Positions 20-61,700 of a DNA stretch of 64,000 nt are shown piece after piece. Source of the DNA: Saccostrea echinata. Lineage: Eukaryota. Positions within the stretch are counted from its first letter, which is position 1, and each line of letters opens with the position of its first letter. Location: assembly GCF_033153115.1 (NCBI RefSeq), contig NW_026889761.1, positions 8,308,001-8,372,000 on the forward strand. Reading direction: 5' to 3'. The notes beneath the pieces were generated by a model. It worked only from the letters and a program-made list of their open reading frames with translations. It did not search any database and was not told the DNA's origin. Position numbers and translations under genes: made by a program.

Positions 20-110
20 GTCAGTTATACAAACATTCAAAGCTTGGACGATGGACAGGAGTTGCTGTTAAAAGTGTACAGCTTGAATGTCGCCCCAGTG
101 GAGAATCCAA
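20..110 (+). CDS. Exon 1 in window (LPD_N beta-barrel)
   Basis: cag| VSYTNIQSLDDGQELLLKVYSLNVAPVENP |gtgagt; phase 0 to 1. Confidence 0.85.
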
Positions 111-2563: not shown

Positions 2564-2625
<62 letters not shown>

Positions 2626-8600: not shown

Positions 8601-11600
8601 CTCATTAGCATATTACCCTTTTGCTTTTGGTTCAATATGGCCTTAAACAAGGCAGTGTCCTTATCTAAATTTTGTTTAGTTCATGTCCTATTTGTATAAA
8701 ATGGATCCACAATACAGGGACAAAATTTTACTTTCTGGATTACTTTAAGAACAGTGGTTTACATTTGTAAAGTTTATAAGTAGATGTTCCCATGTAAAGT
8801 TGCTTCCACTTGGTTCAGAATATGACTGTTGGACTTTTACCTACAGTATGGAAGAATATCTATTCAATTTTTACTTAAGACATTTACTGATTTGTTTTAT
8901 ATATTTTCTCAATTACAGATGACACTTTCATTCAAAAAATTTACTGATTTAGTTTAAACAACAGATGACATTTGTAGAGTTGATCTATAAAATTTGTGAT
9001 TACTTTATAATATGCTATTTTTTTTTAAATTTTAGACTATGATCTACCAAGCCTACCTTGAAACTATTCATAGTGTGCTTATTGAAGAAAATTTTACATC
9101 TCCTAAAACACCTCCAGGGTGAGAGATAGAGAGCATTTATTTCAAACTTTTAATATAGTTAAAATTGCCATATTCACACACAGTATTAAGGAAGATCTAA
9201 ACACCAACAATCAAGAAAATTTAAGACTTTTGATAGAAATATATACTACAGAATTTACAGGATCACCTTAAGTACCAAAAAAACCTACCAGAAGGCTCTT
9301 GCATGTAGTGTTTAAAGCTTCCTTAAGAGACTAACCACTGCCATATGTGACCGTAAAAATCCCTCTCAAGGAATTACCCTATACATTGTACCTGCATTGG
9401 AGGACTCCCTGTCAGATTCTACAGTGATTTTTGCAACTTTTGCCAATGATTTTGTGCAATTATACTGTGATTTAACAACTTTTAAATATTTCAATATAGG
9501 TCGAGCATGTCAAGATTGTTGGTTCAGACCCGTGTTTATATTAGTTTTCAAATCGGTTGAAAATCAGAATCGTTTAAAATGGGCAGCATCCGTTGACTCT
9601 GATCAACTGATAATCGACCAATAATCAAATCGTTAACCATTTGTATAAAATAGGCACTAAACTTTATATATATCATAGAAGAAAGTAAAAGTGTATCACA
9701 CAGTTTAAAATTCTAAATACAGAATGCAGTTTGATTAACAATTTCAGTAACACAGATTTTTACATGATTAAGATTTACTTTAAAAAAAAAACAAGTATTG
9801 ACAGAGTTTTAATCAATGTGATCACCTAGAATATAATTAATTTTTTTTACTACACAGTAAATAAAGCAAATCCGCATGACCCATGTGATTTCATTTAAAT
9901 GAAAGTGAATTTTCCTCCAAAATTTTGATAACCAATTTATTTAATTATACAATCAGTTTTGTTTCTTCAGCTTAGAAATACAATATCATTGTAATCATTA
10001 TCTATTTTTTGGAAATTCAAGCGTAGTTGTCCTTATCTGTAAGAAAACCAGCTTACTGTATCAAAGCAGATGATATGATAAACAACAAATAAAAAAATAT
10101 TTATGGCAGAATTATGATAATTTTTTTTTCTTGAAATAAAAGCGTGAAAACAATGAAAAAGATTAGTGCTGTATTATACTGATTATAATCAATTGTTAAA
10201 TCTCTAATCGATTGCTCAGAATTGATGAGCTTTCCGATCGATGATCGATTATTAATCAATCATCGTGACAATTCATTTAAAAAAATTATATATTGCGGGT
10301 TTTACAAGAAAATCAGCAATTCAAAATTGAAAAAAATATTAAAATTTTAGATATTAACATTCTCATCTTAAAGCACCAATTTTGAAAATATAGGTTTAAG
10401 ATCTATTCCGATTATACATATAGTATTTCGATCATAAACGTTATCCAATTTGTTCTATATATAAGGACCAACTGGATGATAACATGAGTAAAGCTGGTAT
10501 ATTTTATCTCAACTTCAAACTAAATCTTTTGGGGGTTTTAAGTGGGTCATGTCACTGTTAGATTATGTAAACACATTTATGGTACAATGCAGCTAGTTCC
10601 CTCACCGGATATTTATTTTTGATGTAACTGGTGACAAATAAACAATCAGAGTTAAAATTAGTCATAAGAAATATTTAAATAGATTGAATATGTTTTTAGT
10701 CGTAAATAATTTTATTTGTCTCCAAATGCAAAAATTGACAGTTTTAATTCTTTACTCAGAGCAAAACATGCAAAGTTATACATGCACATGTATATCATAT
10801 AAAACAATTTTATTTATCATGACTTTTTTTCTATCGTGAAAAATCTTAACAGCAATTTTCTTTTTGTGTGAAAAAAATCTCAAATATACAGAAGCCCAAT
10901 ACTCACCGAAAATCAAATGACTTTTGTTCAGAATAATTGCTCCCCAAAATAGACAAGGAATTTNNNNNNNNNNNNNNNNNNNNNNNNNNNNNNNNNNNNN
11001 NNNNNNNNNNNNNNNNNNNNNNNNNNNNNNNNNNNNNNNNNNNNNNNNNNNNNNNNNNNNNNNNNNNNNNNNNNNNNNNNNNNNNNNNNNNNNNNNNNNN
11101 NNNNNNNNNNNNNNNTTGAAATATTTTCCATTGTTCATTTGTTTCTAGAATAAGTGTATTTATTTGAACTGTGGAATATAAGCAATCAGTATTAAGAAAA
11201 CACCTGCCATATGATGTGACCTTTCTCCTTTGGATGGTCTCTTAATACAGATTTGACTGTACTTTATTTCCTTGTACTTTAAGATTTGATCCATTTCATG
11301 GCATGAGAAAGGTAAAGGCTGTAAACGACTTTAGTAAAGAAGGTAATTTGTAACTTTTTATGTGCCTGTTTAGATTAATATTTAATTCAATGCATAGTTA
11401 AGAATTTATTTTGAAAAATGTGGGAAACTATTGCATGTAAGAGAATAACGCTTTTCTACTTATGTATGTTTATTGTAGAGTATCCTACAATGTCTTACAC
11501 AAGTCAAGGAAAGCTTAGTTTCCTAACAAGACACGTGGACAAGAGAAAATGGATGAAGCCAAGTGAACAACTTCTGAAATCACCAATACATATTGGCACT

Positions 11601-14600
11601 GTAAGTGTCTTCTCTAGTTGAAATGTCCAAGAAAGGATAAATATGAAGTGTGATTTCAGGATTCACCCGTTATGCAAAATTAATTATTCCACGTTTCCAA
11701 CTGTCGTTGTTGTCCCTGGCATACCCAACAAACTACACTGTGATTCCTTATATTTACATTTATATGTGAAATAAAAGTGCTAACAGAAAAACATGTTGTC
11801 TAATAGTTTAAAATTATGGCAAGCCCTTTTACTATTTATTCGTAAAAAAATTTTTCACTCAAAATTACAGAGATATCTCTTATTTTAGAGAGATATCTCT
11901 TAAAAAACAGAGATATCTCTCAACTTAAAGAGATATCTCTCAACTTAAAGAGATATCTCTCTAAGAAAGAGATATCTCTTTCACTTAGAGAGATATCTCT
12001 TATACTAAGAAAGATATCTCTTTCACTTAGAGAGATATCTCTTTCACTTAGAGAGATATCTCTTCCACTTAAAGAGATATCTCTTTTCCTTTGAGAGATA
12101 TCTCTTTCGTTAAGAGAGATATCTCTTAGCGTTAAAGAGATATCTCTTTCACTTAGAGAGATATCTCTTTCACCTAGAAAGATATCTCTTTTACTTTGAG
12201 AGATATCTTTCCAAGTTTAAGAGATATCTCTCAAAGTAAAAGAGATATCTCTCTAAGTTTATCTTAAGAGATATCTCTCAAAGTGAAAGAGATATCTTTC
12301 AAAAGTGTCCAAAAGAGATATCTCCCAAGCAAAAAGAGATATCTCCCAGGTAGCACAAAACATTTCCAAAACATTTTATTGCAGTTATAAAAAAGTTTTT
12401 TCAAAACATTTCAGAGTAAACATTTTTAAAACGTTTTAAAAACATTTTTCTTTCCCATTGTAACATTTTAAAAACATTTTTACAATGTTTTCAAAAAGGT
12501 TAAAGTAAAATCTTTAAGGAACATTTTAAAAAATGTTTTTGAAACGTTTTAAAAATGATTCCAAAGGTATGTCTTGTTTGCATATATTAAACAGTTTCAT
12601 ATTACGTTATAAAAATGTTTTTAAAACATGAAATAAAACATTCCTCTTCTATATATATGAAACATAGTAATGTTACGTTTCTAAAACATTTCGAAGGAAC
12701 GTTGTCAAAATGTTTTTAAAACATTCTTAATATTGCTTATAGTTTAATATTTAAATGTTTCAGTGTTGGTCGTGAAAATGTTTTTAAAACATTGAACAAA
12801 ACGTTTTCTCCTCCTACAACTGAAACATTTTATTTATAATTTATGCAACATTCTATAGAAACATTTTCAAAATATTTTTAAAACATTTATATCATTGTTA
12901 ATATCAATGCATTTGTTTATTTTCAAAGTATGTTGTAAAAATGTTTTTAGAACATTGACTATAACGTTTATCCTTTCAAAGACTAAAACATTTTATTTAG
13001 CATTGATGCAATATTTTGTAATGTAATTTTCAAAATGTTTTAAAAATATTCAATTTTTCCCGAGAAAGTTTCTGAAAAAAAATATATAGAATATCCAGAG
13101 AGGATTGAGATTAAATGAAGAATTGTTTTTAAAAATGTTCCAAAAACATTATCCCTGTATTTTTCTTTCCTTTTTTCAAAAATTCTTATTGAGTTGACAG
13201 ACATGTAATCAATATAAGGTTCACTGAATAAACTAAAGATACTTTAGTTTAAAAAAGAAAACAAAATAATAAGCAAACTGTTACAATGATTAACACGGCC
13301 TGATTTTTGACGATCTCGTCTGTTTGCATCATATTTCCTACACGCCAAGGCAGCAGATTAGGAGTGGCCTGGTCAGTTTCAGTGTCATGATAACCTTGTT
13401 ATGCAATTCTCCTGCTGGGCAGCGCGTTAGAGTGTTCAGTGGATTGCAGCTTATCTAGGCCAAAATTTGAATTCTGGTAAACAGGATGTGCGCGTTTTCT
13501 TGTTGCTGATTTTCAAACAAGATTTTTGCATCATATAAGCCAGAGGAATTAGCGCTGGATTATTAACACCTGCCTTGTGAGTATAATTTCATCAGAGATT
13601 TCAAAAGATAATTTTTATAAGTGACTTTTCTGTTACCAGTACATCATTGTATTTTTGTATGCATATGTGTAGCAAAAACAAAGCTATTATGCATTTGAAC
13701 TGAATAGTTTAGGCAACAACAAATATACCTCCTTGTCTTATGTTGATCACAACTCTTTATATCTTAATACTGAAACATGAAATCATATTGCAGTTAGATG
13801 ACAGTTCCATCAACAGACTTGAATTTCATTCAAATTGCCACATTTGGAAGAACCGCCACTAGCTGATAAAAGCAACTCTTTGGTACGTAAATATAATTGC
13901 TCTTAAATAATATTATTGTGTTTTAGTTATGAACATGCAGCAACTCTAATTCTTTTCACTAATGTAAATGGGAAAATTTCTTGTGATTTTAAGATTTAAA
14001 AAATGTTCTTGTATATTTTCATCATTTAAAGATCTGATGTAGACGGATGGCTTAAACACCTTTATCTCTATGTTTACAGGTTCTGCTTTACAGAAGAAGA
14101 GCTTCTTGATTCAATTCAGGACAGACTTCTTGTGAACTTGATCAATGTGTGCGATTCCATTTATATAATAGATCCGCCGCTCTGTGGAACTTACACATGT
14201 ACATGTAGATACATGTTTTTTGCGGGATCGTAAATGATAACAGTGATCTAAGCCTGTTTATTCTTTTTTGTGTGAAGGATTTATGTGATTCTGTTGTTTT
14301 TTAAATTCAGAGAATGGATTTTTATTCTTTAAAAATACCTGTTGGGTTAAAACAGAATAACTCAGAACTTGTACCGGAAATGGAACTATAATATGTTTTT
14401 CATATTAAATAAGGATTTGTATTAAAATTTGTAAAAAGTGAATTCATTCAGTTGTGATTAATTCTTTGAGAGTTATAATTAAGATGAAATGTATGAAAAG
14501 CCATTTTAAAGTCATACAAATTGATGTTGATATCATTTAATGAAAACGTAAAGTGACATTTCAGGAAAGAAACGTCATTGCAACATTTGGGTAAAATGTT

Positions 14601-40758: not shown

Positions 40759-43700
40759 TTGTCCATTTTGGACAGTTCTAGGTGTTATTGGAACTTTTTG
40801 GTTGTATTTTTAAGGAATTCCTGGTACATGTATTTTCTCTTTTTTTAAGCTGGAATTTGGACTTCAAGGCAACAAGTTTTTTCATAAAATGTTTTCAACG
40901 TGAATATCGGCAATTCGTCAGCAAACATGTTTCTATTGAACGACGCATAAATTGTATTAAAGAACTACTGTTCAAGTTTTACATGTAAATACTGCTTGAA
41001 TGTTCCATTCAAATTTGTGTCCTAACTGTTTACTACTTATATTTTTCAGGCAAATCTTATGTTAAAATATGGGTTGGAAGATTAGAATTTTCTTATATTT
41101 AGGAATGTATCTGGGATTTTTTGTCTCATATAGGGAACAGGTTTTAACCAAGACTCGGGTAACCCCTGTATGATGCAATATTGTTCTCTCACATTTATAA
41201 AAATCTTCTATCAATTTAATGTCAGAATTAAAATTGTTTAAAAATACACTATATTCAAAATAATGAGATTAAATATTTGTAGTAGATTGTTGGAGGGGTT
41301 TGTGAGTAATTTAAAAGATTTTTTAAAGCAAAAGTCATCAAAGTCATGAAAATATACAGGAGTAAATAAATTTTCCAGCTTCTGTAGCATTTTACTTCAC
41401 ATAACATATTTTCAGATGAAAAACCATACTGGTTTGATGTTGAAAAATTGCTGCTTGAATACCAGCCTTTAGCTGATCAAGCCTTTGCCAGTTTGAAAAG
41501 TGCTGGTGACAGATGGATCAATGAGAAAATAGAGGATGCAGAGGACAGAGTCAAAAAATTTACAAAGGGCAAATTTGCACTGGTCAGTATTCATATGTAG
41601 ATTTTATAATATAATTATAAGATAACTGAGAGAGCTAATCGCCATGATATAATTGTGAGATTACTTAGAGCTAATCGACATAATAGTAAAATCACTTAGA
41701 GAGATAATGTTATGGCGATTAGGTGTGATGTGTGCAATCTTTTTACAATGTAGCTAGCTAAGAAATTTAACCAATATTATCAAATTGTTCCTAGGGTATA
41801 GTCAAGTTGGATCAAGGGTTTTCACTATTAAAATAATGATCAAACCTTAACCAATCTGGTGGGTTAGGAACTTATTATACCAGGATAGCAGTTTTTCTGT
41901 TAGGTGATTGAATGGAAAATGTTTAAGAACTATAAGAATATTTTATGAAGTTGTTTGGAATTATGTTATATTTGCTGTTACAGAGAGATCTTAGGCGAGA
42001 GGCAGTGCGTACAATAGAAACTCTCCAAGCACTTCTGATGGACCCCTTTAATGATTTATTAGGATTGGCAGATAACTTTGTAAAACAGTATTCAAGTGTG
42101 TTTGGACTTATTCAAAAGATCAAAGATGCATATACCACTCTGAAGGAAGGGTAATTATCAAATTATTTTTTTTATGAATATTATCGTGATAACCTGTGCA
42201 GTGATAGTTCATTGTTTATATAATGATAGTACTAAATATTTTGGAATCTGTTGGAATTGTTTTAGTATATACATTTGTTCTTGTTTTTACTTTGCTTTAG
42301 TTATGACACAGCAAGAGGGATCATTGATGCAATATTTGGTCCAAAGGCACATAAAAAATTTCCAAAGAATCGACGTTTAAAAGGGGGAGGATGTGATAGT
42401 GGATTTTATCCATCCTCTTTAGGAGGTGGACGTAGGGAATACAGACACAAAGGACTTGATCTGTTGGTAGAGAGGGGTGACCCGGTAAATAAAAATTTGG
42501 ATTGATGTCTTAAAGTAATCATTAAATTTGATAAAGAATATGGAAAAAAAAACAATGTACTGTGTTTTGATATTCAAAAAAAAGCAGGATAAATAAATTA
42601 GAATTTTAAAGTTAAGTTCAAAAGAAGTTGTTCAAAATTCTTCATTCAGTGTTAAAATTTTAGATTGTAGCTCCTTTTGGTGGCACTATAACTGTAGATA
42701 GTGAGGACTCAAAGACAGTTATCATTAGTTCAGAAGGAGGTTCACTTCGAGGAATTACAATCTTCATAACCAACATAGAACCCAATTCCACCATTGACAC
42801 GGAAGAGGGCAGATCAGTAATTATTCCCACATAATGCTTGTCATTATTAGCTCACCTGAGCAAAAGGTTCAGGTGAACTTTTCTGAATAAACACTGTTGT
42901 CGTAAACTTTCTGCATTTTTATCTTCTTCAAAACCACTGAGTCAATTTCAGCCTTGTCACCATGCATCTTTGGGTGAAGGAAATTTAAATTTGTTCAAAT
43001 GAAGGACACGCTTTTGTTCAACAGGAGATGATTAAAAAATAGCGAAAGTTGGGTTGAATCATTTAAAAATCTTCTCAAGAACAGCAGGCCAGAAAAGATG
43101 AAACTTATGTGGAGGCTTTTTGACATAGTGCAGATTCAGTTTTTTTTTCAGTTTTTTTTATCTAGTAATTATAGGAATATTGAAGTAGAAGATGGAGAGT
43201 TTGAAAAAAGAATTTTATTAAACTTTGTGTATCGTATAGGTAAAGCAGTAATTGTAGATCAAGAAAGATATTTCTTCTGATAGTATTTAAGTAACTTTGT
43301 ATAGTGTATATTAAGCAGCCCAAAAAGTCTAGGGGAAAAATGGCTTTGATTTAAATTAAATTCTGATTTAGATTTATAAACCTAGCTGCAAAACTGTAGC
43401 TCTCTGCTTGAGAAAATTCGGACAGGTGAAGCAGAGAGCTACAGATCCAAGCGTTGTAAAAATCTTCTATTTACGCCATCACATTTTTCACTTCTCACTT
43501 CGGGTATTATTTCTTGTATTTTATGCTTTCCCCTGCTTTTAAGAATGGTATCCGATAATTAACCATATATTTTACTCCTATTCTTGATCATGTTGATACT
43601 TTATTTACCTTGATGCTAGGTTGGTTTACGATAGGAGTTCAAAGTAAATCAGAAGCATATATACATGTAGAACTTTTTAATTCTTTAGATACAGTGGAAT

Positions 43701-46700
43701 CCTGTTTTTCTATATTCATTTTGTCACGATAAAGTATTGTACCAAGTCCCCAATAAACTCAATTGACATAAAAAGTTGGGCTACAATTTCTAAAATTAAT
43801 AGGCAAACATATATGTTCAAAATGTTCTGGGTCTGGCCACAATAGATGTTCAAATTTGTCAAAATATTGTAAATATTGCTCCAAGGTTTTTGACCTTGAC
43901 AAGGGGTGTCATTAGTCAGATGGAGAAATGTGACATAGTTCAGTGTTTTTGCCATTGCGCATCATTACATTTGTTTGCAGTGTGCAGCGGGTCAGCCCAT
44001 TGGTACAGCAACTCGTTCTGATTGTGATAATCACATCCATTTAGCATTTCAAAAAGATGGAGGCAGTTATGTGGATCCCACCAAGTATCTCGAGTCATTA
44101 TTTCCTGTTGTTCCTAAGTGGAAGCAGATCTGTGATGATTACAAACTTGTTTTCAAGGTAATAAAACAATCAAGGAGTGGGTAAACTATTGTAATCACTG
44201 TGTTCGTATGTATGTTTGACAGTCCCAGTTGTTTGCCAGAAGATATTACTAGGTAAACTTATAGATATTAAGTTGAAGTGTAGTAAAGATTTAATAATGA
44301 AGTAGTTCTTGATCAGGAGAGTCCAGAAATAATTTCAACCGTTTTTTATGGAATTGACTAAAAATTCTGTATTCCAGAACATTTATAGGTTAGACTTTAA
44401 ATTCAGGTATTGAATGAAGTTACGTACTCTGTGCATAAGAGAATTGCAGATCACTATGAAATAAGAATGTCATAGGATTTCATTTTCTCCTTAGTAATGG
44501 TCAAGGTCAAATACTCATCTATTGCATAAAAGGTTTCCAGATGATAACTTAAATTTTCTGTGAGCTTTTGCAATAAAATTTTACATCACATCTTCCTATA
44601 TATGCTTTAAAAAGACCCTTATTAATTCTGAGGTTAAAAGATCAAGGTAAGGGTTCATAAATATTGCATAATTAGGCAGTTTTCAGATGATAATAACTTT
44701 GGTTCTCTTTGAGCTTAAGGAATGAAACTTAAGGTGTTGAATATAACTAAAGAATTTAAGACTCCAATTGAAACCAAGGTCTAAAGGTGAAAAGATTAAG
44801 GTCGGTTTCTTGCCAGGATTAATTCTTAAGATTCTTAAGATTTTCCATCCTTATTTGTTGTCCTAGATGGGAGATTGGATTCCCAGAATTGTGAAAATCT
44901 GACATCAAGCCTCAATACTAACAACTGATATGGTTGATATTACTTGCTTTTGACTACTGAACATTGTAAGTGTGGTCCTTAGTTGAAATATACTATTGTA
45001 TTATTCAGAATGAAACAATAGCAGCTAATGTGATAGTTGGTTTGATGGGTGAAGGTGTCCAAAATAAAGACCCTACTATTACCAACACAGACAAGGCTGT
45101 TCCAATTAAATTTCCAGAAAGCAATGCAAATCCAGATGACACCATAGCCATAAAATGTAAGTTGCTCAGGTACACATCTGAGTCACTTGTGTGACCTATT
45201 GTTGTCTTTTAATTTAAGTCTTGCTTCATGGGGCATCTGTCATTTCAATCAAGAAAATGGAACATTTTCCCCTTTTTTCTAAAATAGCTAAATCATGCAA
45301 TTAATATTTGTGGTAAAACCAATAGACAAGAGGAGTAAAGAAATGTAAAGTGAATTTCATTGTCATATGACCAAAATCACCAAAATTCATGGACTCTGCA
45401 AAGATATTTTCTCTTAGGCATTTACCATCCAACGTATGCATCGTAAAAAAAAAACTATGGATACTGTGCCCTATGGGTTTGTGATTCAGATCTGAGGGTG
45501 AAGCTGAGCTAGTCTTTAGAAAAAGTTAGTATTCTGTGTAAATTAAGATATTCATGTCACCCACTTTTAGATTCAGACTCCAGAATGGGGCTAAAATGAT
45601 CTAATGTATATTTAACTATGTCTTGAAAAATCTGCTTTAAGCATGGACATTTAGCAAGCAAAATGCAGTATTATAATGAACAATGATGTATTCAGCCCCT
45701 GAATTGGGGGCCAAGGTTTTTGTACTTTGAATGTCATTATACATGCATCTTTGAAAATCTTTCTGTTTCCCCTGGACATCCTGTTTGCATGATTATACTT
45801 ATATCATGAAATTTAGTTTTTCTGGGTTCAGGCCTGTATGTAGGGCTATGTTGATCATTTATTGAAAAACCGTAATAATTTTGAAAATCTTTATAATATT
45901 CTTTATTTCTGGATATTTCTAAAAATTTGCAAAAAATAACAAAAGAAAACTATGAATATAAAATCGATGTCACTTTAAATTGGCTCCAGAGTTGCAGTCC
46001 AAGATGGGACAGAGTATGGTTATCGTTATAGCTTAAGATACCCTATTTCATTTTCTACTCAAATGACAAGAACAAAAAGCATATTCTTGACCTAAGTTAA
46101 TGTTCATACACCTGATTAAAGAATATCTTGACAACGCCATGAATACTCTATTTAAGGGTAGAATATTTGTCTTGCTAGGCCATGAGTTTGTATGTATTTA
46201 AAAAAAGCATGAGCAACTACCTTATTTCTAAGCTTTTTTTTTAAATCGCAGCATGACAGACAGGCACCTTTTATAGACTAAAGAATGTGTGCACCCATTA
46301 CTGAGAAAACTTCAAAAACTTCTATGAGGCAATTAAATTCAAAGTTTATAATACATGTATATGTTGTTAAAAACAAAGTGATTTAGATGATTGTTATGGC
46401 TCATGGGCCTCTTGTATTGGTATTGCTATATACCATTGATTCTAGGGCATTTATACACAGTTTACATTAATGATGATTATTTTTTTGGTTTATATCTAGC
46501 AAAACCAAGTGGCCTTTTTGCTAAAGTACACTCAAGCTTAGGCAGTGCTCTAGATTTTGACACAGATAATGACCAGTGTCCTGTCGTTATGGGAACCCAA
46601 TCTTCTGTAGGAAAAAGATCTCTTTCTCTTGGAAAAGGTAATCTTTGATTTACAAGGGAAACAAACTGCATTCAAATACATGTATCTTATGTGTTTTCCA

Positions 46701-49700
46701 CTTTCATCAAAGCTAGACTTAAAAGTTATCCAAATCATGTAAGTGGTGTATTGCTACCTATTGTTCTTGTCTTTCAGTAGTAAGTTGTCAGTCAGTATAT
46801 AATTATATAAACTTTTGAACATATTCAACTTTTTCTATTGCTGAAAGTTTTTTAATCAATGATGGAAAAAAGTCTTTTAACACACATAATTATAACCAAA
46901 CACAAAGAATATGATACTTTTTTATGATTTGGTAAAAAATTATATATTGTAGGAATATTCTCTAAACTGTTGAAAACGGCAGATAAATTTTTGGAAAAAT
47001 TCAATATAAGACGTTTAAAGTTTGGCACAATCATGGACTTTCTGGACAAATTTGGAATGACAGAAAGTAAGGCTGCAATGGCGAGAGTGATGAGGGAAAT
47101 AAAGGTATGCCAGTTTTTTTTTTTGTTTGTGTTTTTTTTTCGGGGGGGGGGGGATGGGGGGTGTCCAAGATATGTTCAAAAGCTTGTTTTTTTTTAAGAT
47201 ATCTTGATTTGTTTGTAGAGCTAGTTGTATTGGCTTTCGATAATATGGATTTTGACTAATAGGAACATATCCTGTTAATATGTTATTAATTGATACATGT
47301 AAGTGAAAGCATTCCGAGTAACAAATTTGAAAGTGAGTGCTTCATATATGGATCTGCTATAAATTTCATCTCATTTAATCATTTACAAGCCTTACAGTCG
47401 TTCCATGTTTTTAATATTTAGGAAATCATAGATGACACAGCCTGTAGAAATCCATATGAGATGACAGAGGATCAACTGGTGAATGAATTGACAGAAATGG
47501 GTAAAGACACAAAAGGATCGAGAGAACAACTGATTGAAAGACTGGTGCAATTAGACAAAAGTGTGTGTTAAAAAAACAATTATTCTAAAGATTTTTTTCC
47601 ATGTTAGTAAAATGAATACCATGTTTACTGAGTCTTCAAATATTCTCACATTAATACATTTATATTTTAGGTTGCCCTTTGCTGTCCTTCACCATGCCAA
47701 AAAACAATGTCTACTGCATGTTTGACAGCATGTGTTTAGGACTGGAATGTTGCATTAACCTTAAGTTTGCTGTTTTCTTAAAAATCTTTAAAGTGTGGGC
47801 ACGCTTTGATCCATGTGCTTCTCCTCAAATGTTTTTCACTCTTGGTTTGGATTCATACACATACAAAATTGAGATCCCAAGTGATATATCCTATGATGGT
47901 AAGCTCATAATCAATAATTCTTCAAATTATGGGCACACTTTTATACATATGCTTCTGTTCAAAAGCATGAAAGTATGTTCATAATCAATGATTTAGATTA
48001 AAGGGATCTCCGGCTTGTGCACTGCATTTTTACCCTTTTCAGTCAGAAGTGTAGTTTATTAATATGTCATCTATCGTAAAGCATTTGCAAGATTCAGATT
48101 AGTCTGAATTTGAAAGATTAAGATTGTTGTCCCATCAAAATGACCTTATTGTTCTCACAAAATATTTCTCTTTATATGTCATAGGTTTCATTATTTGGTT
48201 TAACACCACTGATGAATATATGTAAAAGATGCAGTGCTATATAGTTTGGGTGTAATTTATGTAGTTAGCATAGATCTAAAGGAAAGGGCTATGGTAAATA
48301 TAAAAGTAATATCAACCTTCAATTAACGAGCCTTCACCTACCTTGATTTTCTCTGCAGTTTGAAGCGTGCAGACCCACAGATTAGGTTTTTCTGTCAAAA
48401 GGGAATGGTAGGTCTGCCTGAAATGTATCCAGATGATGACATAGTTCTTTTTGAGCTTTCAAAGAAAATGTGATGAATCTCTCCATATTACAATAGATCT
48501 CTGATGATTTGGGGTTAAAAGCTGAAAGGTCAAGATCACAATTTCAAAAATGCTATATATGGTATGAAATGGCTTCCAAATTTACTTCAATGCTGTCTGT
48601 ATCTAACGAGCCCCTTTGATTTGAGATGAAAGGGTCAAAATCAAGGTCTAAATTGAGATGAAAGGGTCAAAATCAAGGTTTAAAATTTGTATCTTGTTAA
48701 CAAGATCCTTCTTTATGATGATTAATAGTGGGGGATATAAAATCCCTGAATTAGCTAAATTCTTCTTTTCTTTTTTCTTTCTTCTCTAAAATTTACTGAT
48801 AAACAGTTTTCTTCTATTTTGGACATTAAGGTTTTGAAGGAGAACTGAGGTCAGGAAATAAACTAGAAATATTAGGTGGATTGGAAGCAGTCATTAGGTA
48901 AATGTAGCTTCATGTACTTTTATACTAATGAATAAAGCCACAAGGCTATATAGGTAGTAAAAACAATATTAATTAAACATTATAAGCATGTAAATTTCTT
49001 GAATTCCAATTTAAAAAAACATGGAATTCCAAAAGGTTCTTTTTAAATACTATTTAGGTACAACATTTTCAAAGGCATAAATGCCACTCTGGTAACATTT
49101 GGAGTTGGACTATGTAGCTTTGATGATTCAGAAAACTGTCTAGTGTTCGTTAACTTGTTGGATAATGCTGTTCTACCAATACCTACTTGTTTACCAGATG
49201 GATCATTTGTGTGGCCCAAATGTAAGTATATAACTGCTTTGCCTCAACTAAAACAAAATACTCAACATTTACAAATTCAACATGTTTTCCTACCAGTGAA
49301 AGTGCAAATCACTTCATGTTGCTTTTCCATAAAATTAAATTGTACGCGCTTTCTGAGTTGGTCAAGTACTCTTAGATCACCTTGCCTCTCTGTAGCGAGC
49401 ATTAACTCTTTAAGGGTGCTAGCGATACTCATTACATTTACCAGTACAATATTCTGAATATGCCCAAACAAGCCAAGATAATCTTTACATACACCATAAT
49501 TATATATTTTATAAATTACTGCAAAGTTATTGGGAGTTTAGACTTTAACCTATGACTGCTAACATCCCAGATCAAAAGTCCATTTCCAAGTAACTTTAAA
49601 TCCTAAGTGGTTAGGTAGTGTATCATGAGAAGAGTTCCATTATTAAAGTTGTGTAGCGGGTATGTTTTTAGCTCACTAATAAGTAAAGTTATTCTACATA

Positions 49701-52700
49701 TAATGTTGATGTAAGACTAAGCCTCATTAATATTCCTTTCAAAAAGGGAACTTCGTCAAAAACTTTATTTGAAAAATAAATGAAAATAATGAAAGTTCAG
49801 AACCCAGATTAAGGCTAAATTGATTGTATATTAATTGTATTAAATCTGTCAATGCCTACTTTGGACATCCATCAGACAATCTCTTCATGATTAAATCACA
49901 AAGAATGAATTCTCTATCGATTGTGAAAGCATATATGTGATTGTCTCCTAGGCCCATTACTTTGTGTTTGCTGTATAAACATGTATGCTAAATGTCTGAA
50001 CTTATTTACAAAGTACCTCTACTGGAATTATCTTGCCGTAAATCTGATACATGATTGGATTGCATATATTTCAAAATGTACATTTTTCTCATCAGAAAGT
50101 AGTAAATTGAGTCTTGTTTCTTTTTATATATCACGATATGTATTTCTTGTTCTTGCAGTGGATTTCAAAAAACTCTTTATGAAAGAGGCATTATATAAGC
50201 ATGTCAAAAAACAAGGAAAATCCATCATCCAGGAAGTAACCTCCAAGCTAACGGATGAATTTTTAAAGTTGTTGAGAATAGAAAAGGTTAGCTTTTGTTT
50301 GTTAAATGTTAAAGAAATATATCTTAAGTTTCGTTTTAGTACGGAGGGAGGTAATGAATTGTTTAACAAAATGAATGTTTGAAATCTGCATAATAAAAAT
50401 TACATAAAATTAATTTATTGAAATATAAAATCTGTAAGGAGTACAGTTGAACTTTGGTATCTCAAATACCATGGATATGTCGAACTGATGTGGAAGTCCC
50501 AACCCCTTATTCTTTAAGTATTTTACCCTCAGAGACCTCGATCCCATCAAGTTCTAGATAATCAGGTTTGGCAGTAGTTGAAGGAATAATACAGGGTCTG
50601 CACTTATTTTGTTAATGACAGTGTTCAACTTGCTACTTTGTGTCATATATTTCTCCTCTAATTGAGGAATTGCATAAAATGATATGAAAATCACACCTCT
50701 TGATTATTCGTCAAGCTTGTGATTTTTCATGAATTGATTTTTAGGAAAAACTCAATGAAGATGTTCCATTGCCTAAGCCGGATAAAATGACACTGGGCCA
50801 GATTACAGCAGACCTAGTACGGAGAGGCTTATCTACAAGTGGTTCAAGATCAGAGCTAAATGAACGCCTCACAATGGATGACTTGAGTATGAATAAAGCA
50901 TACAAATTTCTTTAATATTTTTAATGTACCATACACCAAAAAATTTGTTTCACTCCCAGGTTTCAGTTAAGTCACAGTCACATAATGTATAATGACTAAT
51001 GTGCCAATATTTTTTTTATCACATTCAATATTTTTATAACCTTCGAATTTCAGCATGTGTCAACATTACCTTGAAAAAGGCACCAGAAAGCCTATCAGAT
51101 TTGCTGTATTATAAAATTCAAAAAGACTGCTTGCGGATTGATGCTTGGGTTGATATTAATGTTAAACTGCTGGGCTATTCCTTCAGTAGAACTTTGTCTG
51201 CATTCATAGAATTGGATCCATGCAGTTTTGTTGTACAAATTGGATTTGAAAAATATTTGTGGACAAAAGTTCTTTTGAATTACAATTGGGGTAAGGATGT
51301 AACTAAGCAACAAACAGATCAATATACTTCTTACCATGATTTATCAACAAAGAAATGCATGTGTTCAATTATCCTGAGCTTGTAATTCACAGTTGAAAGA
51401 AATATAATTTACATACGGTCTTTTTTTTTTTGTTTTCAATTTACATATTCAAAATTGGATATATTTATTTTGGGATCAGGGTATGTTACGAAATATCATT
51501 ACTTTTTAAATTTTCGATTCAAATTTTTTTATAGGAACTAATGAACTCGCAGAAATAAGCTCAAATGTAAAAGTCATGTGAGTATGATATTTGGTTGCTC
51601 ATATAACTTAGTTTCAGGACAGAGATCCATTGTATTGAATTCTTTTTGTTGTTCTCCTTTTAGGTACAGCATTGGAAGAAATGTTGATGAGGGAGTGTAT
51701 ATCTTGAAGTTTGGACTGATGATTTGTTTGTCTTCACAAGTAGATTGCATTTTAGATGAATATCTGTTTACAGATCTGAAGATTCCCATTCCTTTGTGCA
51801 GAGACTTTGTTTTTCCAGGTAAAAGTATTTTGAGATACAAGTTTCAGAATTTTACAAGTATATGTTTTATAAAGAATACTTCTCTTTCTGTACATTTTTA
51901 TAACCCACACACTAACAAATTTGGAGGATATATAGAGGATATTCATCGCTTGTAGTTTGATATGGAATTATTTTTACAAGTAGGATAGGTTTTTTTAGTG
52001 CAAACCATTCATGAATTATTGATAAGAAACTTGAAGAAGATTTATTTAATATTGTCCTATTTTTAGGAAATGGCTCATTTGCTGGATTGCTTGAAAAGAT
52101 TGGAGGAAAAATGACTGAAGAGGCTTTTGAACTTGTCCTTAAAAAGTTTGATCTAAATGTAAACATAAAAAATCATTTTGTGTTATTTCGTCAGAAAGAA
52201 GATTTATTAAGAGCTTCTTTGTCTTGTTAATATAGATATCAACAGGTACATTTCTAAGAATGAATTTACATCTTGCAGGATGTAATAACATCGGGAGCGT
52301 GCCCTGGTATTCCACTCACTCCTGAAAGTAAGTGATGATCTCTTTGTCATACAATGCCTTGACCATTATTTTTCAGAAAAATCGCTTACATGTACCATCA
52401 AAGTGAAGGAAATGGTTCTGACGAACAGAGTTAAGGTATTCAATGACCATATTTTGTACCTAATAAATGAATGGTCCGATATTTTTAATCATGTAGCATT
52501 TGGAAGGTGTTATCAACTGGAAATACTCCACCCAAGGAATTTACTTTTTTTTTTTATTATTGTCCAGTTAAAGATATACAAGTCATATAAACGCCAATTT
52601 TTTAAGTGAAACAAAATGATGAAATGATTTGAGAAACATGATGTGAAATGAAAAAATTAACTAGTTTAAAATGATTCAAACTTGTTCAATATCCCTTCGT

Positions 52701-55700
52701 TCTACATTGAATACCATAATTGTTATTAAAAGTAAAATGAATCTTTCTGTCAAATTTTTAACTTAGAAACAAAACAGGCTGGCAGAAGAACCTCGATCAT
52801 GTTTAACACAAATGATGATAATGACAGGAAGGGATGTCGTGAATTTTATCCCAAGTCATTTTGGAACCTCAATCTGAGACTCACTGTTATTATTGTTCAT
52901 GTGACTTTCTTGCCTTTTGCTTTGATATGACATTATGAAATGTATTGAAGAAGTAAAAAAATAACAAAAAGATTATACTGATGACAGGCTGTACAATGAC
53001 TGTACCAAGATATATCCTAAGGAATGCAGAAGTAAAATCTTGACACTTCTAGACCAAATGTTTGTAGATATTTTAGAACTTTACTTGAAAGAGAAGCAAA
53101 GTTCAATTAGTAAAGGTAATGAAATAAGCATGGACTTTGCTTGACGTCACACAGTTCTGGATCAATAAGACACTGTTTGAGCATACCAAGCAGAAAGATA
53201 AAAAGCAATCTGAAACTTTGTTTAAAAAAAAAAAGATAAAAGATAGCATATGAATATATAGAACAAAAATCATTAAATGGTTGAATTGGAATAATTCATG
53301 CCTTTGACATAGAGATTTTATCTTTATACGATTTTTAATTCAGAGAAACATCATTATATTCAATATTTTGCTGGGGCATTTTTTGGAAAAGGACTACAAT
53401 TTTCTGAAACGGGCATCGCTATCACTATGAAGTTGCTATCGTTCATCATTGCCTTTAGTAACCTCAATTGTATTTTGTTATTTGCAAAATGGTATTTCCT
53501 GTAATATCTCTTAGATTTATATGTACCTTTTATAACATTGTTCATAATAAAAGCAATAACTGTTACAATAAGATTTTTACGTGATTGAAGATTGTCCAGC
53601 TGGGTTTGATGTTCGCAAAAATTTACCTCAAGAGCTGAAAGAGATGGTAACTTGTGAACAGCCTCCTAATTGTTGGGGAATTGAATGTTGTCTACAACTG
53701 ACCTTCAACATACCCCTAGGAGACACCAAAATAACCAGAAATATCCCATTCTGGTTCAAGCTAGATCCATGTGATTTCTCCTTAGACATAGGCTTTGGGA
53801 AAAAAATGCTTCTTAAAACACATTTATTAGAATATGAGTATGGTAGGTGAAATACATCATGAACTGCTTTAATTTTTAATCAGCAAGATATTTCATTGCA
53901 AATTCTTATAATGAATGATAAATTTTGTATATCTTTAAAACAGTCAATAATGTTAACTTTCAGGAAAGCAACACACTTTGTCACTGGGCTCAGGAAACTC
54001 TCCTCCAGTAGAAATCATGTAAGTTAGTTGATTGAAATTATTGCTTTCAAACTTAAGTTGGGTATATTTAGGAATAATCCTTACTATCTGTCTGTTTATA
54101 TGTCAAACTATGTATTTGCTACAAGTTTTTTTCAGTGAGAAACATTTAAAGTTCAAGCTTAAATTAAAATGATTCGTAAAAGGAATTTGTCCGCCATATT
54201 TGTATAATCCTGTCGTACTATCTGAGGTCCTTATATAAGCTGTTCACTTAGTTACGGTTCAGTGTAATCAGTGTCCACATGTGTAGACAGACGTATTCTA
54301 CATAGCTATTATGAAACATTCGATAGCGACAAAAGTAAGTATATGCTTCCTCATGGTAGGAGAGAAAGTTACAAAAGAAACTTGCAACAGTTGCACAGGC
54401 CAATGCAGTTCAAACACAAATACATATAAACTGATATAAAATGTAAGCAAAGGTAAAGTAAGATATCCAACACGAACATGTGTTGTCCATTCCATGCAGG
54501 TACCCGAGACAGAAAAGCATTTAAGGTGTAACGAATGTGGAAGACATACCCCAGTGCTGATATTGAAGATAGGAAATCTAATCTGGCGTATGCCTATTTA
54601 TCTTCGTCTTTAACCAGAAAAGTTATAATAACCAGTGTGTTTGTCATGTATCTAGCTGAAGTCAATTAGAACAAAGTGAAGGATACTTGGATCAAAATGA
54701 TCTAAGTGTTAGTTTTGATGAACTCATGATACAGTTGAACTTCCACATTTTGAACCCTGATATGCCAATATTATGAATATGTCGCAGTAAATCAGTCCCA
54801 CTACTATATGAGTTTGATTTTCATCTCTATTGTCACTTGGATATCTCATAGGTTTATAAAGAACTGTATGTTGTTTAGTGAGAAATAGGCAAGAATGTCG
54901 TGAAAAGGTGAGTCAAGAGGAAAAAAAATCTGCAAGTTTTTATTTAAAGGTATATGTCATATTTCTTGGTTACATTTCTTCCAACCATAAAGTACACATA
55001 CATTTTGAAAGAGTTTGCTCTGATATTGGCAACATTTCTTGTAGTCAGCCAAAATCTTTGTAGATCTTTGGACAATCCATTATTTTAGATGTATGATTAT
55101 TATATTTTCTTTACTAAGTCACAGTATTATCATTATAGCTTGTCTGTATTTTAAGGGTGTATAGGGATTCTGTCTATATATTCTAGTAAAAGAGGTCTGA
55201 CTAGACTAATGTTTGTGCAGAATTCTTTTCTTTAATTTTTTGTTTGACATAGTCTTAAAAGTACAGTCAAACCTCTATCTCAAACCCTATGGGTTCCAGA
55301 AAGAACTTCAAGATATTTGATGATTTGAGATTTCGAGGTTAAAATACATAAAGAAAAAGAAACTTTTAACTCACTTCGACACACTTATCATATCTGAGAT
55401 ATCAAAGTTAAAGATAACCAAGTTCAAACGTATTTCAACTTGACAAAAGTGTTTTGAGATGGTACCCTCTTGATTCAAGTTTGAAAAGTATTATTTTATA
55501 CTTATAAGGTTCAACTTTAATTTTACCTAATATTCAGAAGTATTGATGACTTTTATTTTAAAAATCTATGATAATTATACAGATATAGGATAGAGCAAAT
55601 TCCAGGAAACAAAGGCTTTTTTGTGGATTTAAGAATACTCATTTGCTTTGACTTTGATGTGAAAATTACATGTATTCCAACAAATGATGGACTTCATATA

Positions 55701-58700
55701 CTGAAAAATCAGGAAATCCCACTTTGTGATCAGAGACAGTTGATTGATTTTAGCAGTGAGTATGCTTTGCATGATGGTTTGCTATTATATTTTTAATGTA
55801 GCAGTGCTCTAACTAAATATTACAGTATACCCTACTTTGACCAAACTTGTAAAAGAAATGCAACCTACGATCCATATTACCTGTCTTCCTTTAGATTCTG
55901 CATTTGATATGTATTTTGTAGACTAGTGAACATGTTCATATTTACGAGCAGGTCCATTGCAAATATCAAAAATCCAAGCTTTCTTCGGACAAGAATGAAT
56001 GATGGCTTGTAAAAATATGCAGCATTTTAGATATACCCACATGTTTTGATATAGCCCATTTAAAGCTCTCTAGTACTTTGGGAAAATGTGTAGTTTACAA
56101 TTCTTTCAAAGATTTTTCATTGACTGATTGGATGAGGGAGAAGTCACTGAATCTTAATGAACAGTTGGCAGAGGGTGCCGTGATGTTACTGCTGGACCAG
56201 CTCAATTTGACTGATTTCTTTCAAAGATCCAAGTGTGACAGGACAAGGATGCCATACATACCTTCTATACAAGGGATCCATAATAGTATGTAAATGAAAG
56301 TTTTAGTATCATGCTTCCAACTGTAAAGTCTATACACCATATAGACAAGAGATTGATTATAATGCATTTTTTAGGGAAATGATTAGAAAAAAATTAAATA
56401 GATTATGATCTTCAAGTATGCAGCCTTACAACAGAAAACACTTTGAAACATATCTGGATGATAATTAAACATAAAGTTATAGATTTAAAAAAAAAAAAGT
56501 AGATAAATAAACATGCACGCATCAAATTTTTTTTTAACAGAATGTCCAAAGACCATTGTTTACCTGCCATCCAAGATTCCTGACCCAATGTCCTGCTACA
56601 TACCAGGCTACTGTACAGGGATAGAGTGTTGCGCTGACATTCCTGTTCTTGGTCTTGGACTACATGTGTTTGCTTTTTTGGACTTGGACAAACTTGAACT
56701 CCGTATAGGAATGGAAAACATTAAAGAGACTATAAAACTAAATAACTATGTGTGGGGAGAGGTCAAAACTTATAGTGTGGCTGAAGGTCTTATCAAACTA
56801 AAGTAAGTTGATGTTCCTATTTAGCGGAGGTAAAGAGTTTATAAACTTATCTGCTCGGTGGAAATGTAAGTTAAACAATGATGTTGCGTCTACAAGTATT
56901 TATAGCAGTTATGAATGAAATAGATATCCAAAGCATGAACTTTTATCCTTTGTAATTTTGAAACATTTAATTGCTTGAAGTTAAAGAATCAAAATCCATT
57001 TGAACATGCAAAAGTTTTGATAAATAGCATAAACTAAACATGTCGTACTTTAATATTTTTACAACCATTTTGCATTTGTAATGCTAGTTTGAATATTAAA
57101 TTCCTCTTTTAGGTTAAGTGTGAAGCCAATAACAAATGAGAATGTGTATGTGTTCAATGTACATGCCTCTGTGTGTCTGAATGGAGGACAATGTTCAATT
57201 GACATCCCAATTTTAAGGAATACCAGGTTACCAACAATCAGAGCCATAATCACTGGAGAAAGCAAGAGTATGTAAAGAACGTATAGATACTGTAAAAGGA
57301 GAAATTTTAGCAAGGTTGTTTAGATCACTAAAATTTAAAATTCCTCAATGGAGGTTACCTTATCTTTCCATGTATCACAAGATCGCTAAAATTGAATACC
57401 GATTTTTTTTTAGGGAAAAGCGCTAAATTTGCATCCCGCTAAAAATTCCACTTATACAGTATATGCCTATGAAGTTCAATGTTTACTGCGAATTCTTTTG
57501 TCAAATTTTAGCATTTTGTTATTAGATTGTTTTACTGTATCACACAAAAATTTTATTACAGTATTGTGGGTACCTTATGAAAAACAGTATTCTAGTTATT
57601 CTAGTACAGGGATTTCTGCTTTTATATAAGCAACAAAAAATAGGATAAACAATTTATTATTTATTTTGTACAGACTTTTCATTTACAAATTGGCTTCATG
57701 AGATGAACATAACACAGGATAATCTGAGAGATAATGCAAAGGCTCTTCTGGTTCAACAGCTCGGTATTGACCAGTACCTGTTAGACACACCATGTGATTC
57801 ATCAAGAGATTTGTATTATCCCAGTAGCCATGGCTGGAAAAATGGTTAGTTAATAATTGAGCTTATATAATTTGTCATTTGGAGAGAAAAGATGTAGAGA
57901 ACATCAGTTTTAAACAGAAAATTAAATTCAATGTCTGTTCATTACAGAGTGTCCTTTGGACTGGGTGGTTTTACCCCAGATTACCTCAGACAAAGTGAGA
58001 TGCAGCCTTTCCTCAAACTGTACAAGGATAGACTGTTGTGTGGACTTCAGTCTCCTAAATCTCAAACTCCATTTCTACTTACACTTCGATAGGTGTAATT
58101 ATGTCATATCTGGAGGAATTGAAAAGAAAACATTCAGTTATGGACTACTAGATTTCAATAGTTTTTGGGGTATAGTATTTCTGTAATATTAAATAAAAGA
58201 AAATATTCATTAAGTGATATATATATTTTCATTTCAAAATATGTTGTAGATGAGTCAAAAAAGGGTAGTATGGTTTACTGGTATTGCCAAGCCATGTATG
58301 CTATTGTCGGGGCTTGTCTGTAACAGGGGAAGAAGTTGTTTTTCATGTTCATCTTCATTTCTCACTTGGGTCTGTTTTCAGATTGCTTTTTTTAAGGATT
58401 CAATAACTGTCTAATTTTTGTTTTTATGATGTGATCAAGCAATTGGCTTACGCGAGGATTTGCATAAACGCCGAAGGCAAGCCAAATCCTTGATCATCAT
58501 CATAAAACCGAACGATAAGACAGTTTTCTTATATTTACATGCTCTTCATTCTGAAATTCATGTGCTCGAAGCCCCGCCTACTTTCCCTCACCCTCCGCCC
58601 GCACCTGATTTTTTTAAACGATGCCTTTTGATGAACCAGTAGCTGTAGAAATCAAGTATTTTTACTATTTGTAGTTTTATCTCAAACAAAGAAATTTTAA

Positions 58701-61700
58701 AAATGTAAATGTTTCAACATATAACTTATTCACAAAAAACTTATACTGTACATTACTGCCTTTGGCAGCTATTGTCTATCTACCTGTACTATGTGTGCAC
58801 TGAAGTGATGGGAAATTTCCTATTGCATGTGCACTGACTGAAAGTATTCAGGACATGTAAAATAAGGAATCTAGCTGCAGTTTCAACAGTTTTTCACCAA
58901 GAATAATTATTTCATTTCAAAGGGTGTAAGACTATTCATCTGCAGTATACAGTGTATGCCCAAGATGACAATCTATATATCAACATCATCCTAAAAGCTA
59001 AATGATGCCACTGGAATTAAAGATGGTTATCATGTTATTTTATTGATCAATGTTCATTTTCTGAAACATACAATCAAAAAACTAAGGATATGCGATTTTA
59101 TCTGTATACCGGTATATCATGATTTTTTTTTATTAGGCGATACGTATCGTGATACGGAGACTAAAATACCGGTATTTTATATGTAATTATAAATAACGGA
59201 AATAATTAATTTTTTTGTTCACACTCTTGAATAACAATTTTAGGAATTGTAGAAATGGTGTTAAACAACGGCATCCTAACATCCAAACATGCTTTATTAA
59301 TATATAAATAAAAATGAAAAAAGTGAAGTTTTGTTTTCACACTACATTTGTTGAAAAGTCATTGAAATTCATTTAAAATCATAGTAAAAATTATGCGTAA
59401 ATATATCATGATATTATCGTGATATCTTTGGGGGAAATCGTGATATATCGCGATAAATTATTTTTGCCGATACCCATCCCTACATGTATCTATGATTGAC
59501 ATCATGAAAAGTCTATGATAGTTTAATTTAAATAATTCCTGTGTTGTCTAGGTAGAGAAGTCTCCATGAATATTGGAAATGTTGTCTTCATCAAGTAAGT
59601 GAATACTAGGAAGTTGTCTGTATATTATTTTCTCTACATATTTACTTTGTTTTATGTTAAGTATCCTTTCATCTGCCCCTATTTGAAGATTCGGTGGAAT
59701 ATAGTTTTTGCACTGTTCGTCCGTCTGTCAGTTTGCTGTTTGTTCACTAAAACTTAAACCTTGCCCATAACTTTTGATTGGCTGGATCTATGGCTTTCAT
59801 ATTTCACAAGTGTATTCCTTGTGACAAGACCTTTCATTGGGTACCAATATATTTGACCTCTTTACGTTGAAGTTTGACCCACTTTTGCAAAAATTTTCCA
59901 AACTTTAACCATGGTCATAACTTTTGAACAGGTGCTAGAACTTTCATACTTTTTTGATAATTGTGAGATGTTATATTTTATGTACTGTAACAGTAAAATA
60001 TTAATTTCCATGCAGTCAGATTTGCTTCACCATATCCATACCTCAATTTATTTTGGAAATAAAAACTTCGACCTTGACCTTTTGAAAATCTTTAACCTTT
60101 GCCTTTACTTTTGAACAGTTGGTACTAGGGCTTTTATATTTCACATATGTATATCTTATGACAATGCCTTCCCCTAGGTACCATTAATTTTGACTACTTG
60201 ACCGTGACCTAGCAGTTTGATTAACTTTTTAATTTAAAAACTTTACACATGGCCATAATATTTGAATAATTGGTGATTGAGCTTTCATATTTCTCAAGAA
60301 TATTTATTGATTCTGTTCCTTTCTTTGGGTAACAACATATTTGATTATTTGACCTTGGCCTTGGAGTTTGACTTGCATTTGAGAAACATTAACCTTCTCA
60401 GAAAGCTGTCAGACTGGGGCATCAGTGTTTCACAAACACATCTAGTTCATTATGAAGATTTAATTCATAAAACATTTTTTTAATATAGATTTAAAGCCAC
60501 CCAGCTGGAAGTATCTAAGAAATATGTCTTAGACATGGGCATTTCTGTGTGTTTAGAACCTGATGTCTGTGATTTAGATATTCCTATATTAAAAGAAGTC
60601 CTTATTCCAATTCTTAATTGTGACCTCACCATGGATTTCAATGTCAAAGGTGAGATTTTTTGATAAAATAAAATGCATTATCCACATATGTAAGTAAGTG
60701 GGGACACATATTGAAATTTTTTATATTGCCATCTTAATTATTCTTTGATTAAAAACTAAAAGTAGAAATGTTTTCCCCATAGATTTTTCTCTCGTGAAGT
60801 GGATGAATGAACAAGGTCTTTCATTTGATGGAAGTTTGTCTACGGCTCTGGCTGCTGCTTTGTTTAAGAAGCTGGGAATTGATTCTTTCCTGAAAAATCC
60901 AGCATGTGAAAGGACAGAAGCACCGTACAGTGTCAACAAACAGGACAACAGTGGGTGGTCCTCAGGTAGAAAATTTCTGTACAGTTTGATCACAATTAGT
61001 AGAAAAAAGATTGACACTGGCTTAAAATTTGGACTTTCCAGCAGTGTTGTCTAGAAAATAATTTCGGTTGTCTTCAATAATTGATCTTATTTTTTTGTGT
61101 GCATTACTTTCTTCCTTTATCAATTTTTGAATATGCATGTGGAACATTGTGTATCAATTAATTTGTTATAAAGTTTTCAATGAGAATGTACTACTAGTAT
61201 GAATAAAATGTTATGATTTTGTAGACTGTCCAGCTAAAATGTCTATGCCAAAAATAAGAGGAACAACCGCCTGCTTTATTAAAAACACATGTACAGCTAT
61301 CAAATGCTGTGTGGAGGTTGGAAAAGTTAGCAGAACTTTTGAGATTGAATTGGATATTGACTTCTGTAACCAGAAACTGACATTTGGTATAGAGAAGCTT
61401 ACAGAAACTATTTCTCTCCAAGGATTTGAGTATGGTATAAATTTCAGATTTTAATTTTATTTTTCCATATTGATTGATTTGTCACTTCACTTGAAAAAAA
61501 TACAATTTATAAAGTTTTTTATATATAGTATACACATGTATGTATTCCCAGTGTTTTTCCTTTATTTCAAAGTAAAGGGTTTGGGATCAATTGTAAAAGG
61601 CTAGGGTTTAAGGTTTATGAATAATATCTCTGCGAGTCTTATGACAGTTATGTTTTAAATTTGGATTTCTTAGCGGCATTTATATCAAGTGGTCATTTTG

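Follow-up and report, generated by a model that had tools for sequence, protein, structure and literature searches.

Active M23 enzymes carry two histidines that are not zinc ligands: the first His of the HxH motif and a second one about 30 residues earlier (His291 and His260 in LytM; PMC9662197). Replacement of either by Ala abolishes the activity of LytM, lysostaphin, LasA and ALE-1 (PMC4594094; also the LytU paper, PMC5519744). Degenerate M23 domains, including LECT2, SpoIIQ, EnvC and Csd2, are an already known kind and function mostly in protein-protein interaction (PMC9662197). Csd2 and EnvC are metal-free cases (PMC5053510), and SpoIIQ of C. difficile keeps the zinc motifs, with zinc stabilising the SpoIIQ-SpoIIIAH complex (PMC4982068, PMC6934232). 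The zinc of LECT2 is structural (PMC8039541), the protein is described without a catalytic His (PMC9662197), and worm LECT-2 acts within a receptor complex (PMC5079751). In this study, we analysed a 64,000-nucleotide stretch of the Saccostrea echinata genome (the window; contig NW_026889761.1, positions 8,308,001 to 8,372,000 of the forward strand), in which a three-exon M23 domain is embedded in a giant gene.

Our working interpretation, based on alignments and a structural model, is that the domain is probably a catalytically dead M23 fold with a zinc-stabilised groove that docks a protein or peptide partner, inside a likely secreted Vitellogenin_N protein. Of its components, the inactivity of the domain is very probable according to the alignments.

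The motifs HKGLD, APFGG, FITNIEP, HIH and DPTKYL, reported in an earlier note on this DNA, all lie where it had placed them, in three spliced exons (Table 1). All three exons have AG/GT ends, and joining eight exons by their coordinates gave an open frame of 428 aa. Splicing was deduced from the splice signals and from the orthologue P0006 (Saccostrea cucullata LOC134241150, a partial database protein of 4549 aa), whose exon joins are identical to those of the window domain and which shares 90% identity with it over 168 columns.

Taken singly, the M23 exons matched no Pfam family. On P0006, Pfam Peptidase_M23 was detected at residues 1051-1147 (E 3.4e-6), with 27.6 bits being slightly below the cut-off of 28.7. 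The fold was assessed by whole-domain scores on an AlphaFold model of the P0006 domain, built from 6 sequences, with a mean predicted local distance difference test score (pLDDT) of 65, rising to 70-90 in the core and falling below 50 in the leader and tail. The model matched LytM with VIA Z 12.7 (root-mean-square deviation (rmsd) 3.0, 122 aligned; Foldseek E 2e-6), lysostaphin with Z 12.2 and LECT2 with Z 10.3 (rmsd 3.3, 121 aligned). The top 46 VIA rows were M23 structures, and Atlas returned M23 clusters for a Haliotis relative carrying the same residues. Both structural searches thus agree with the M23 fold proposed earlier. The label "LECT2-like" is partly right: the resemblance is strongest in the first half of the domain (GCG..Y..HxGxD..APFxG), but LytM is equal or better by profile (E 3e-5 vs 3.7e-5, a near tie) and by structure (Z 12.7 vs 10.3); the quick tree contained no LECT2 sequence. 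HKGLD and HIH aligned to the canonical HxxxD and HxH with high confidence, and the predicted zinc ligands are kept, as had been claimed.

The earlier note also placed an Asn where active enzymes have their second catalytic His. The domain has His only at positions 17, 49, 130 and 132, with none between His49 and His130, so the second catalytic His is missing in any register. When 55 family domains were aligned jointly with 21 bacterial or phage domains in MAFFT, the strand contained no gap and Asn98 shared its column with a His in 17 of the 21 bacterial or phage rows; the other four carry Asn or Gly there. In hhalign, Asn98 occupied the same column in 5/5 runs, with low column confidence (1-3 of 9), whereas single-sequence and profile HMMER searches of PDB left the register of Asn unsettled, one to three residues off. 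The corresponding strand reads MFYIKP in LECT2, ITNIEP in the window and ITNIKP in P0007. We regard the alignment of Asn98 with LytM His260 as very probably correct. The absence of the His260 equivalent, together with the loss of activity of related enzymes upon loss of a single His, indicates that the domain is probably non-lytic, and the corresponding claim of the earlier note is thereby upheld.

A profile search returned 330 proteins at E ≤0.001, of which 150 were listed, and all survey counts refer to the matches listed. The survey alignment comprised 157 proteins, 156 of them aligned; the bacterial-type P0114, P0136, P0140 and P0151 and the unaligned P0150 were removed. Its rows include single-exon fragments, are related to one another, and were counted in confident columns. 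The survey of orthologues at the Asn position that the earlier note had suggested gave N 54, G 10, H 4, P 3, S 2, K 1 and Y 1 (n = 75), that is, Asn or Gly in 64/75. The first zinc His was found in 22/75 rows, the Asp in 80/86, the first His of HxH in 55/98 and its last His in 98/99. The two cysteines were nearly invariant (Cys31 84/84, Cys127 93/95). Among 45 complete domains, from molluscs, a crinoid, hemichordates, amphioxus and a chytrid, none had all five canonical residues, eight had the zinc triad and six had the pattern of the window; the full catalytic set was still absent (0/55) after paralogues of the same genome were added.

The Asn is therefore old and family-wide, and variation is concentrated in the zinc site. 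It had been suggested that the Asn distinguishes a zinc-keeping domain; this was not supported, and Asn was rejected as a marker of zinc-keeping members, because it stays in relatives that have lost both the zinc His and the HxH His. His occupied the Asn column in P0029, P0056 (Ptychodera), P0031 and P0102, all without the first zinc His; the three complete rows among them also lack the first His of HxH, and the fourth is a fragment without the zinc His. In these four proteins, both retention and one-base reversion are possible. A single base change separates a His codon from many of the residues that replace the first zinc His (D, Y, N, R, L), and the full pattern of the window appears in separate branches of the quick tree. 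Together, these observations suggest that the zinc site was lost repeatedly, the quick tree giving no proof of direction. Since most relatives have lost both, the ancestral function of the family, judged from these alignments, cannot need either zinc or catalysis.

Within the oyster clade the pattern was strict. HxxxD and HxH, which supply four of the five canonical residues, were retained in 9/9 complete oyster-clade domains and in P0010, P0014, P0033 and P0034. The leader residue His17 was present in 22/22 rows with the zinc His and in 15/15 rows with His130, the rows being related and not independent; a fourth ligand is one possibility, no relation to the site another. Both observations would suit a slow or atypical hydrolase, in which His130 alone, perhaps with Asn98, His17 or Tyr47, activates water, the oyster clade cutting a bacterial or host peptide and other lineages having lost the activity. 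The literature also has His260 "and/or" His291 activating water (PMC4594094). However, the same source reports four enzymes inactive after loss of either His, and LECT2, which has these four residues too, is described without a catalytic His and with structural zinc (PMC8039541, PMC9662197). In addition, no clear equivalent of the oxyanion Tyr204/Arg could be placed in the domain, loop 1 being aligned with low confidence and modelled with pLDDT <50. We consider such a hydrolase improbable.

The genome holds at least 13 family copies. Seven close copies, including that of the window, all keep HxxxD, the Asn and HxH, with pairwise identities of 48-98% and 56/156 invariant columns. Among them, silent sites were near saturation (proportion of silent differences, pS, 0.64-0.80; of non-silent differences, pN, 0.19-0.34), the ligands were invariant in 7/7, and the ligand codons differed silently, with both His codons in use. 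Because silent sites approach saturation while ligand codons vary only silently, the predicted zinc site is, on codon evidence, under purifying selection in this oyster clade. The first zinc His is absent from six more distant paralogues (L022-L027; contigs C2, C14 and C30 of G000), which include a cluster of four on C2. In the four whose later exon was read, the motifs are E-N-I and S-I-H: the Asn is kept and the first His of HxH is lost. A search of the same genome with PF01551 returned only two identical intron-free genes on contig C170 (L028 1402-2004 and L029), which were judged foreign and used as a canonical reference only. They lie in phage-like DNA of 51-55% GC, which probably comes from a phage or bacterium assembled together with the animal DNA.

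An expanded group of seven paralogues in which both the zinc site and His130 are held by purifying selection would fit the function proposed in the earlier note, a peptidoglycan or peptide sensor. In this explanation, the domain would be a natural substrate trap that grips a stem or cross-bridge peptide through zinc and His130 without cutting it, on a lipoprotein-like body that transports or agglutinates what is caught. There is precedent for binding of this kind: LytM Tyr204 mutants are inactive yet still bind peptidoglycan (PMC4594094), and a review describes binding of both peptidoglycan and lipoteichoic acid by LECT2-b of grass carp (PMC10034042). However, a trap would need its metal site, and the zinc triad is present in only 8/45 complete relatives. 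Loss of the triad in Mytilus, Pinctada and one Haliotis, all of the same mollusc branch, would be odd for a conserved receptor. Moreover, Pfam identified no cell-wall-binding or immune domain on P0006 or P0005, and the paralogous domains have no common cationic character (K+R 14-23 vs D+E 17-26). A sensor role is thus unsupported and, in our view, unlikely. More doubtful still is its extended version, in which oyster-expanded, zinc-loaded traps with an enzyme fold of bacterial origin or type, disarmed by the His-to-Asn change, would catch peptidoglycan peptides in haemolymph or yolk and form a kind of animal receptor unrelated to PGRP, NOD or LysM, on an ancient LLTP branch reaching back to chytrid fungi. 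Binding of peptidoglycan by the oyster copies, if real, would make them invertebrate immune receptors of a new type and give them relevance to shellfish disease.

Very degenerate copies of the domain persist (P0141, P0110, P0084), and the active-site positions are conserved far less well than those of the core, the Cys residues and the leader. These features would be expected of a purely structural spacer, an old folded module of a lipoprotein-like chain that binds nothing and gains stability from zinc where zinc survives. Against this, the place of the domain is fixed at about residue 1000 from amphioxus to molluscs, and His130, although dispensable for zinc, does not vary within the oyster clade; a mere spacer appears very improbable.

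We therefore return to an inactive, zinc-stabilised binding module. Zinc held by His49, Asp53 and His132 would bring order to the loops of the groove, as it does in LECT2 and in SpoIIQ of C. difficile. His130 alone would not activate water, and a bound peptide would stay uncut. Asn and Gly suit a left-handed backbone turn, and the residue at position 98 would be retained for backbone geometry at a strand break, not for chemistry. Asn is probably kept for its shape, because Asn or Gly fills the position in 64/75 family rows and in 4/4 bacterial rows without His, and because DSSP of the P0006 domain model shows the strand broken at residue 98. Cleavage at the two furin-type sites that precede the domain would leave it on the C-terminal chain, so once processed it may be held to the lipid module without a covalent bond. 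As the family persists without zinc, the most likely partner, as a first guess, is a host protein: a receptor, or else a different portion or a further copy of the particle.

Several points weigh against this interpretation. The fold model is that of the orthologue, was built from 6 sequences, and has pLDDT <50 over most of residues 1-43. HMMER shifts the Asn strand by one residue for LytM and by three for LytU and zoocin A. The Ala-mutant data come from bacterial enzymes, and Asn differs from Ala. The survey covers only 150 of the 330 profile matches. His17, a conserved leader residue that accompanies the zinc His and His130, is left unplaced by the model. Finally, the non-ligand His130 is kept in 9/9 complete oyster-clade domains, and this conservation would suit a part in chemistry or ligand binding at the metal no less than a structural role.

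The window is AT-rich animal DNA (GC 27-36%) filled by a single spliced gene on the + strand. P0006 aligned to it by tblastn in 44 collinear pieces with 65-99% identity. The M23 domain lies at about residue 1000 of a parent protein of >4500 aa. Vitellogenin_N (PF01347) was detected on P0006 above the cut-off of 24 (30.9 bits, E 1.4e-7), so the M23 domain is indeed embedded in a lipoprotein-type protein, as proposed in the earlier note. The same family was above cut-off on P0014, P0032, P0158 and P0175 and below it or absent elsewhere, e.g., on P0005. No Pfam match to DUF1943, DUF1081 or VWD was found on 4 + 15 family proteins, several of which are partial and whose divergent domains may escape detection. 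By its predicted N-terminal module the parent protein is a member of the LLTP superfamily; by the domain criteria in PMC10799875, it is probably not a vitellogenin or apolipophorin. The giant Vitellogenin_N protein is likely secreted.

Table 1. Features of the window, with positions counted from its first nucleotide.
Feature	Positions	Strand	Basis
M23 exon 1: leader FGPKAHKKFP, Cys31, GFYPS, HxxxD	42301..42484	+	sequence
Leader His17 (FGPKxHxxFP)	42350..42352	+	conserved in 73/87 rows
HKGLD, predicted zinc ligands His49 and Asp53	42446..42460	+	sequence, alignments
M23 exon 2: APFGG and ITIFITNIEP strand	42664..42816	+	sequence
APFGG	42670..42684	+	sequence
FITNIEP	42763..42783	+	sequence
Asn98 codon AAC, column of second catalytic His (LytM His260)	42772..42774	+	alignments; HMMER register 1-3 off
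M23 exon 3: AGQPIG, Cys127, HxH, DPTKYL, W..C.DY tail	43981..44157	+	sequence
HIH: His130 (LytM His291 equivalent) and predicted zinc ligand His132	44032..44040	+	sequence, alignments
DPTKYL	44074..44091	+	sequence
Giant spliced gene, extending beyond both window ends	17..63897	+	tblastn; exons correspond to residues 55-2556 of the 4549-aa P0006
Vitellogenin_N (LLTP) module exons: beta region, then helical HEAT-like region	17..28302	+	Pfam PF01347 on P0006, mapping
RQKR furin-type site, cleavage inferred	26846..26857	+	sequence; similar site in most long relatives
RSRR furin-type site upstream of the M23 domain, cleavage inferred	28736..28747	+	sequence; similar site in most long relatives
SAP-like helical motif	47422..47568	+	Pfam PF02037, E 1.2e-6
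Weaker second SAP-like motif	50745..50912	+	Pfam PF02037, E 0.0014
First exons of array of ~198-aa Cys-rich repeats	51056..63897	+	mapping to P0006, which has 15 units

Downstream of the M23 domain, two SAP-like motifs sit in this likely secreted protein; SAP motifs are normally nuclear and DNA-binding. Pfam detected SAP on P0006 as well. They are followed by an array of Cys-rich repeats. The model of the repeat (pLDDT 70) shows two helices and a nine-strand beta domain. It had no match in Pfam, PDB sequences or Foldseek, and its best VIA Z was 5.6; Atlas provided a weak lead to DUF4773 (0.80). By eye, the intronic segments 38760-40440 and 42850-43140 resemble repeated mobile-element fragments.

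The named members of the family (30 of the 150 listed matches were looked up) come from bivalves, gastropods, a crinoid, hemichordates, amphioxus and the chytrid Geranomyces. In other branches the tail is exchanged for FN3, PAN, Sushi, C-lectin or EGF domains; P0087, P0024, P0162, P0176 and P0022, for example, retain the LLTP-M23 front and have tails of FN3, cadherin-like, PAN, Sushi, C-lectin or laminin-G domains. The chytrid protein P0141 (Geranomyces variabilis, 4469 aa) carries a very degenerate copy at residues 621-769 and an EGF/FN2/FG-GAP tail. M23 peptidases are not known from fungi according to a 2022 review (PMC9662197).

No publication describing the combination of M23 and Vitellogenin_N was found in a literature search that extended to work outside subscription journals and supplements. 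The window contributes two results: a survey of the family residue by residue, and evidence that selection preserves the zinc site within the oyster clade. The Asn taken by itself is an ordinary residue, found throughout the family and again in SpoIIQ-like bacterial domains. The family forms a natural series of active-site loss, in which zinc is kept, the first His is lost, or both catalytic His are lost. Because every stage is represented, it offers a ready test of the roles of zinc and His after catalysis is lost.

Compared with the LLTP superfamily (vitellogenin, apolipophorin II/I, apoB, MTP), the parent protein shares the Vitellogenin_N module and furin-type sites. It differs in having the M23 domain, SAP motifs and ~198-aa Cys repeats, and in the missing Pfam matches to DUF1943, DUF1081 and VWD (P0006 being partial). 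The degenerate LytM factors EnvC, NlpD, DipM, Csd2 and PrgK are likewise non-cutting M23 folds used for protein contacts and resemble the zinc-less relatives; unlike the window domain, which keeps all three metal ligands, they have none.

Clostridial SpoIIQ offers a parallel in which intact zinc motifs serve complex stability (PMC4982068, PMC6934232), and Bacillus SpoIIQ mirrors the relatives without the first His. The SpoIIQ-like P0151 and P0140 (HxxxD, YxNL and HLH) show the same His-to-Asn change. SpoIIQ proteins are, in contrast, bacterial membrane proteins of sporulation. In the quick tree, the 55 family rows stood on one side with SH-aLRT 99 (short alignment, no bootstrap) and the SpoIIQ-like rows fell among bacterial M23. 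Given this separation, the His-to-Asn change in SpoIIQ-like domains is likely convergent with that of the window family; an origin of the domain from SpoIIQ-like bacteria was considered and is unsupported by the tree.

LytM, lysostaphin and LytU (MEROPS M23B, Pfam PF01551) share the fold (Z 12.7) and the HxxxD, HxH, GxxxG and DP motifs. The window domain, in contrast, lacks the His260 equivalent, has a Cys loop in place of the S-T-G-P loop before HxH, and is encoded by an intron-split animal gene.

LECT2 (human, PDB 5B0H; C. elegans LECT-2) is likewise an animal M23 fold with a zinc triad (H35, D39, H120; PMC8039541) and a missing catalytic His (PMC9662197). It shares with the window domain the GCG..Y..HxGxD..APFxG stretch, has MFYIKP where the latter has ITNI(E/K)P, and acts by binding. 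The catalytic-His position presumably holds Tyr in LECT2; it holds Asn in the window, and Tyr in 1/75 relatives among the matches listed. Members of the LECT2 family are small secreted proteins with one or two M23 domains and a loop that projects over the groove. LECT2 is a stand-alone secreted protein of 133 residues, whereas the window domain lies inside an LLTP protein of >4500 aa. Alongside LECT2, the family would be a second, independent case of a disarmed M23 domain in animals, located in an LLTP branch of molluscs, echinoderms, hemichordates and amphioxus that is unstudied.

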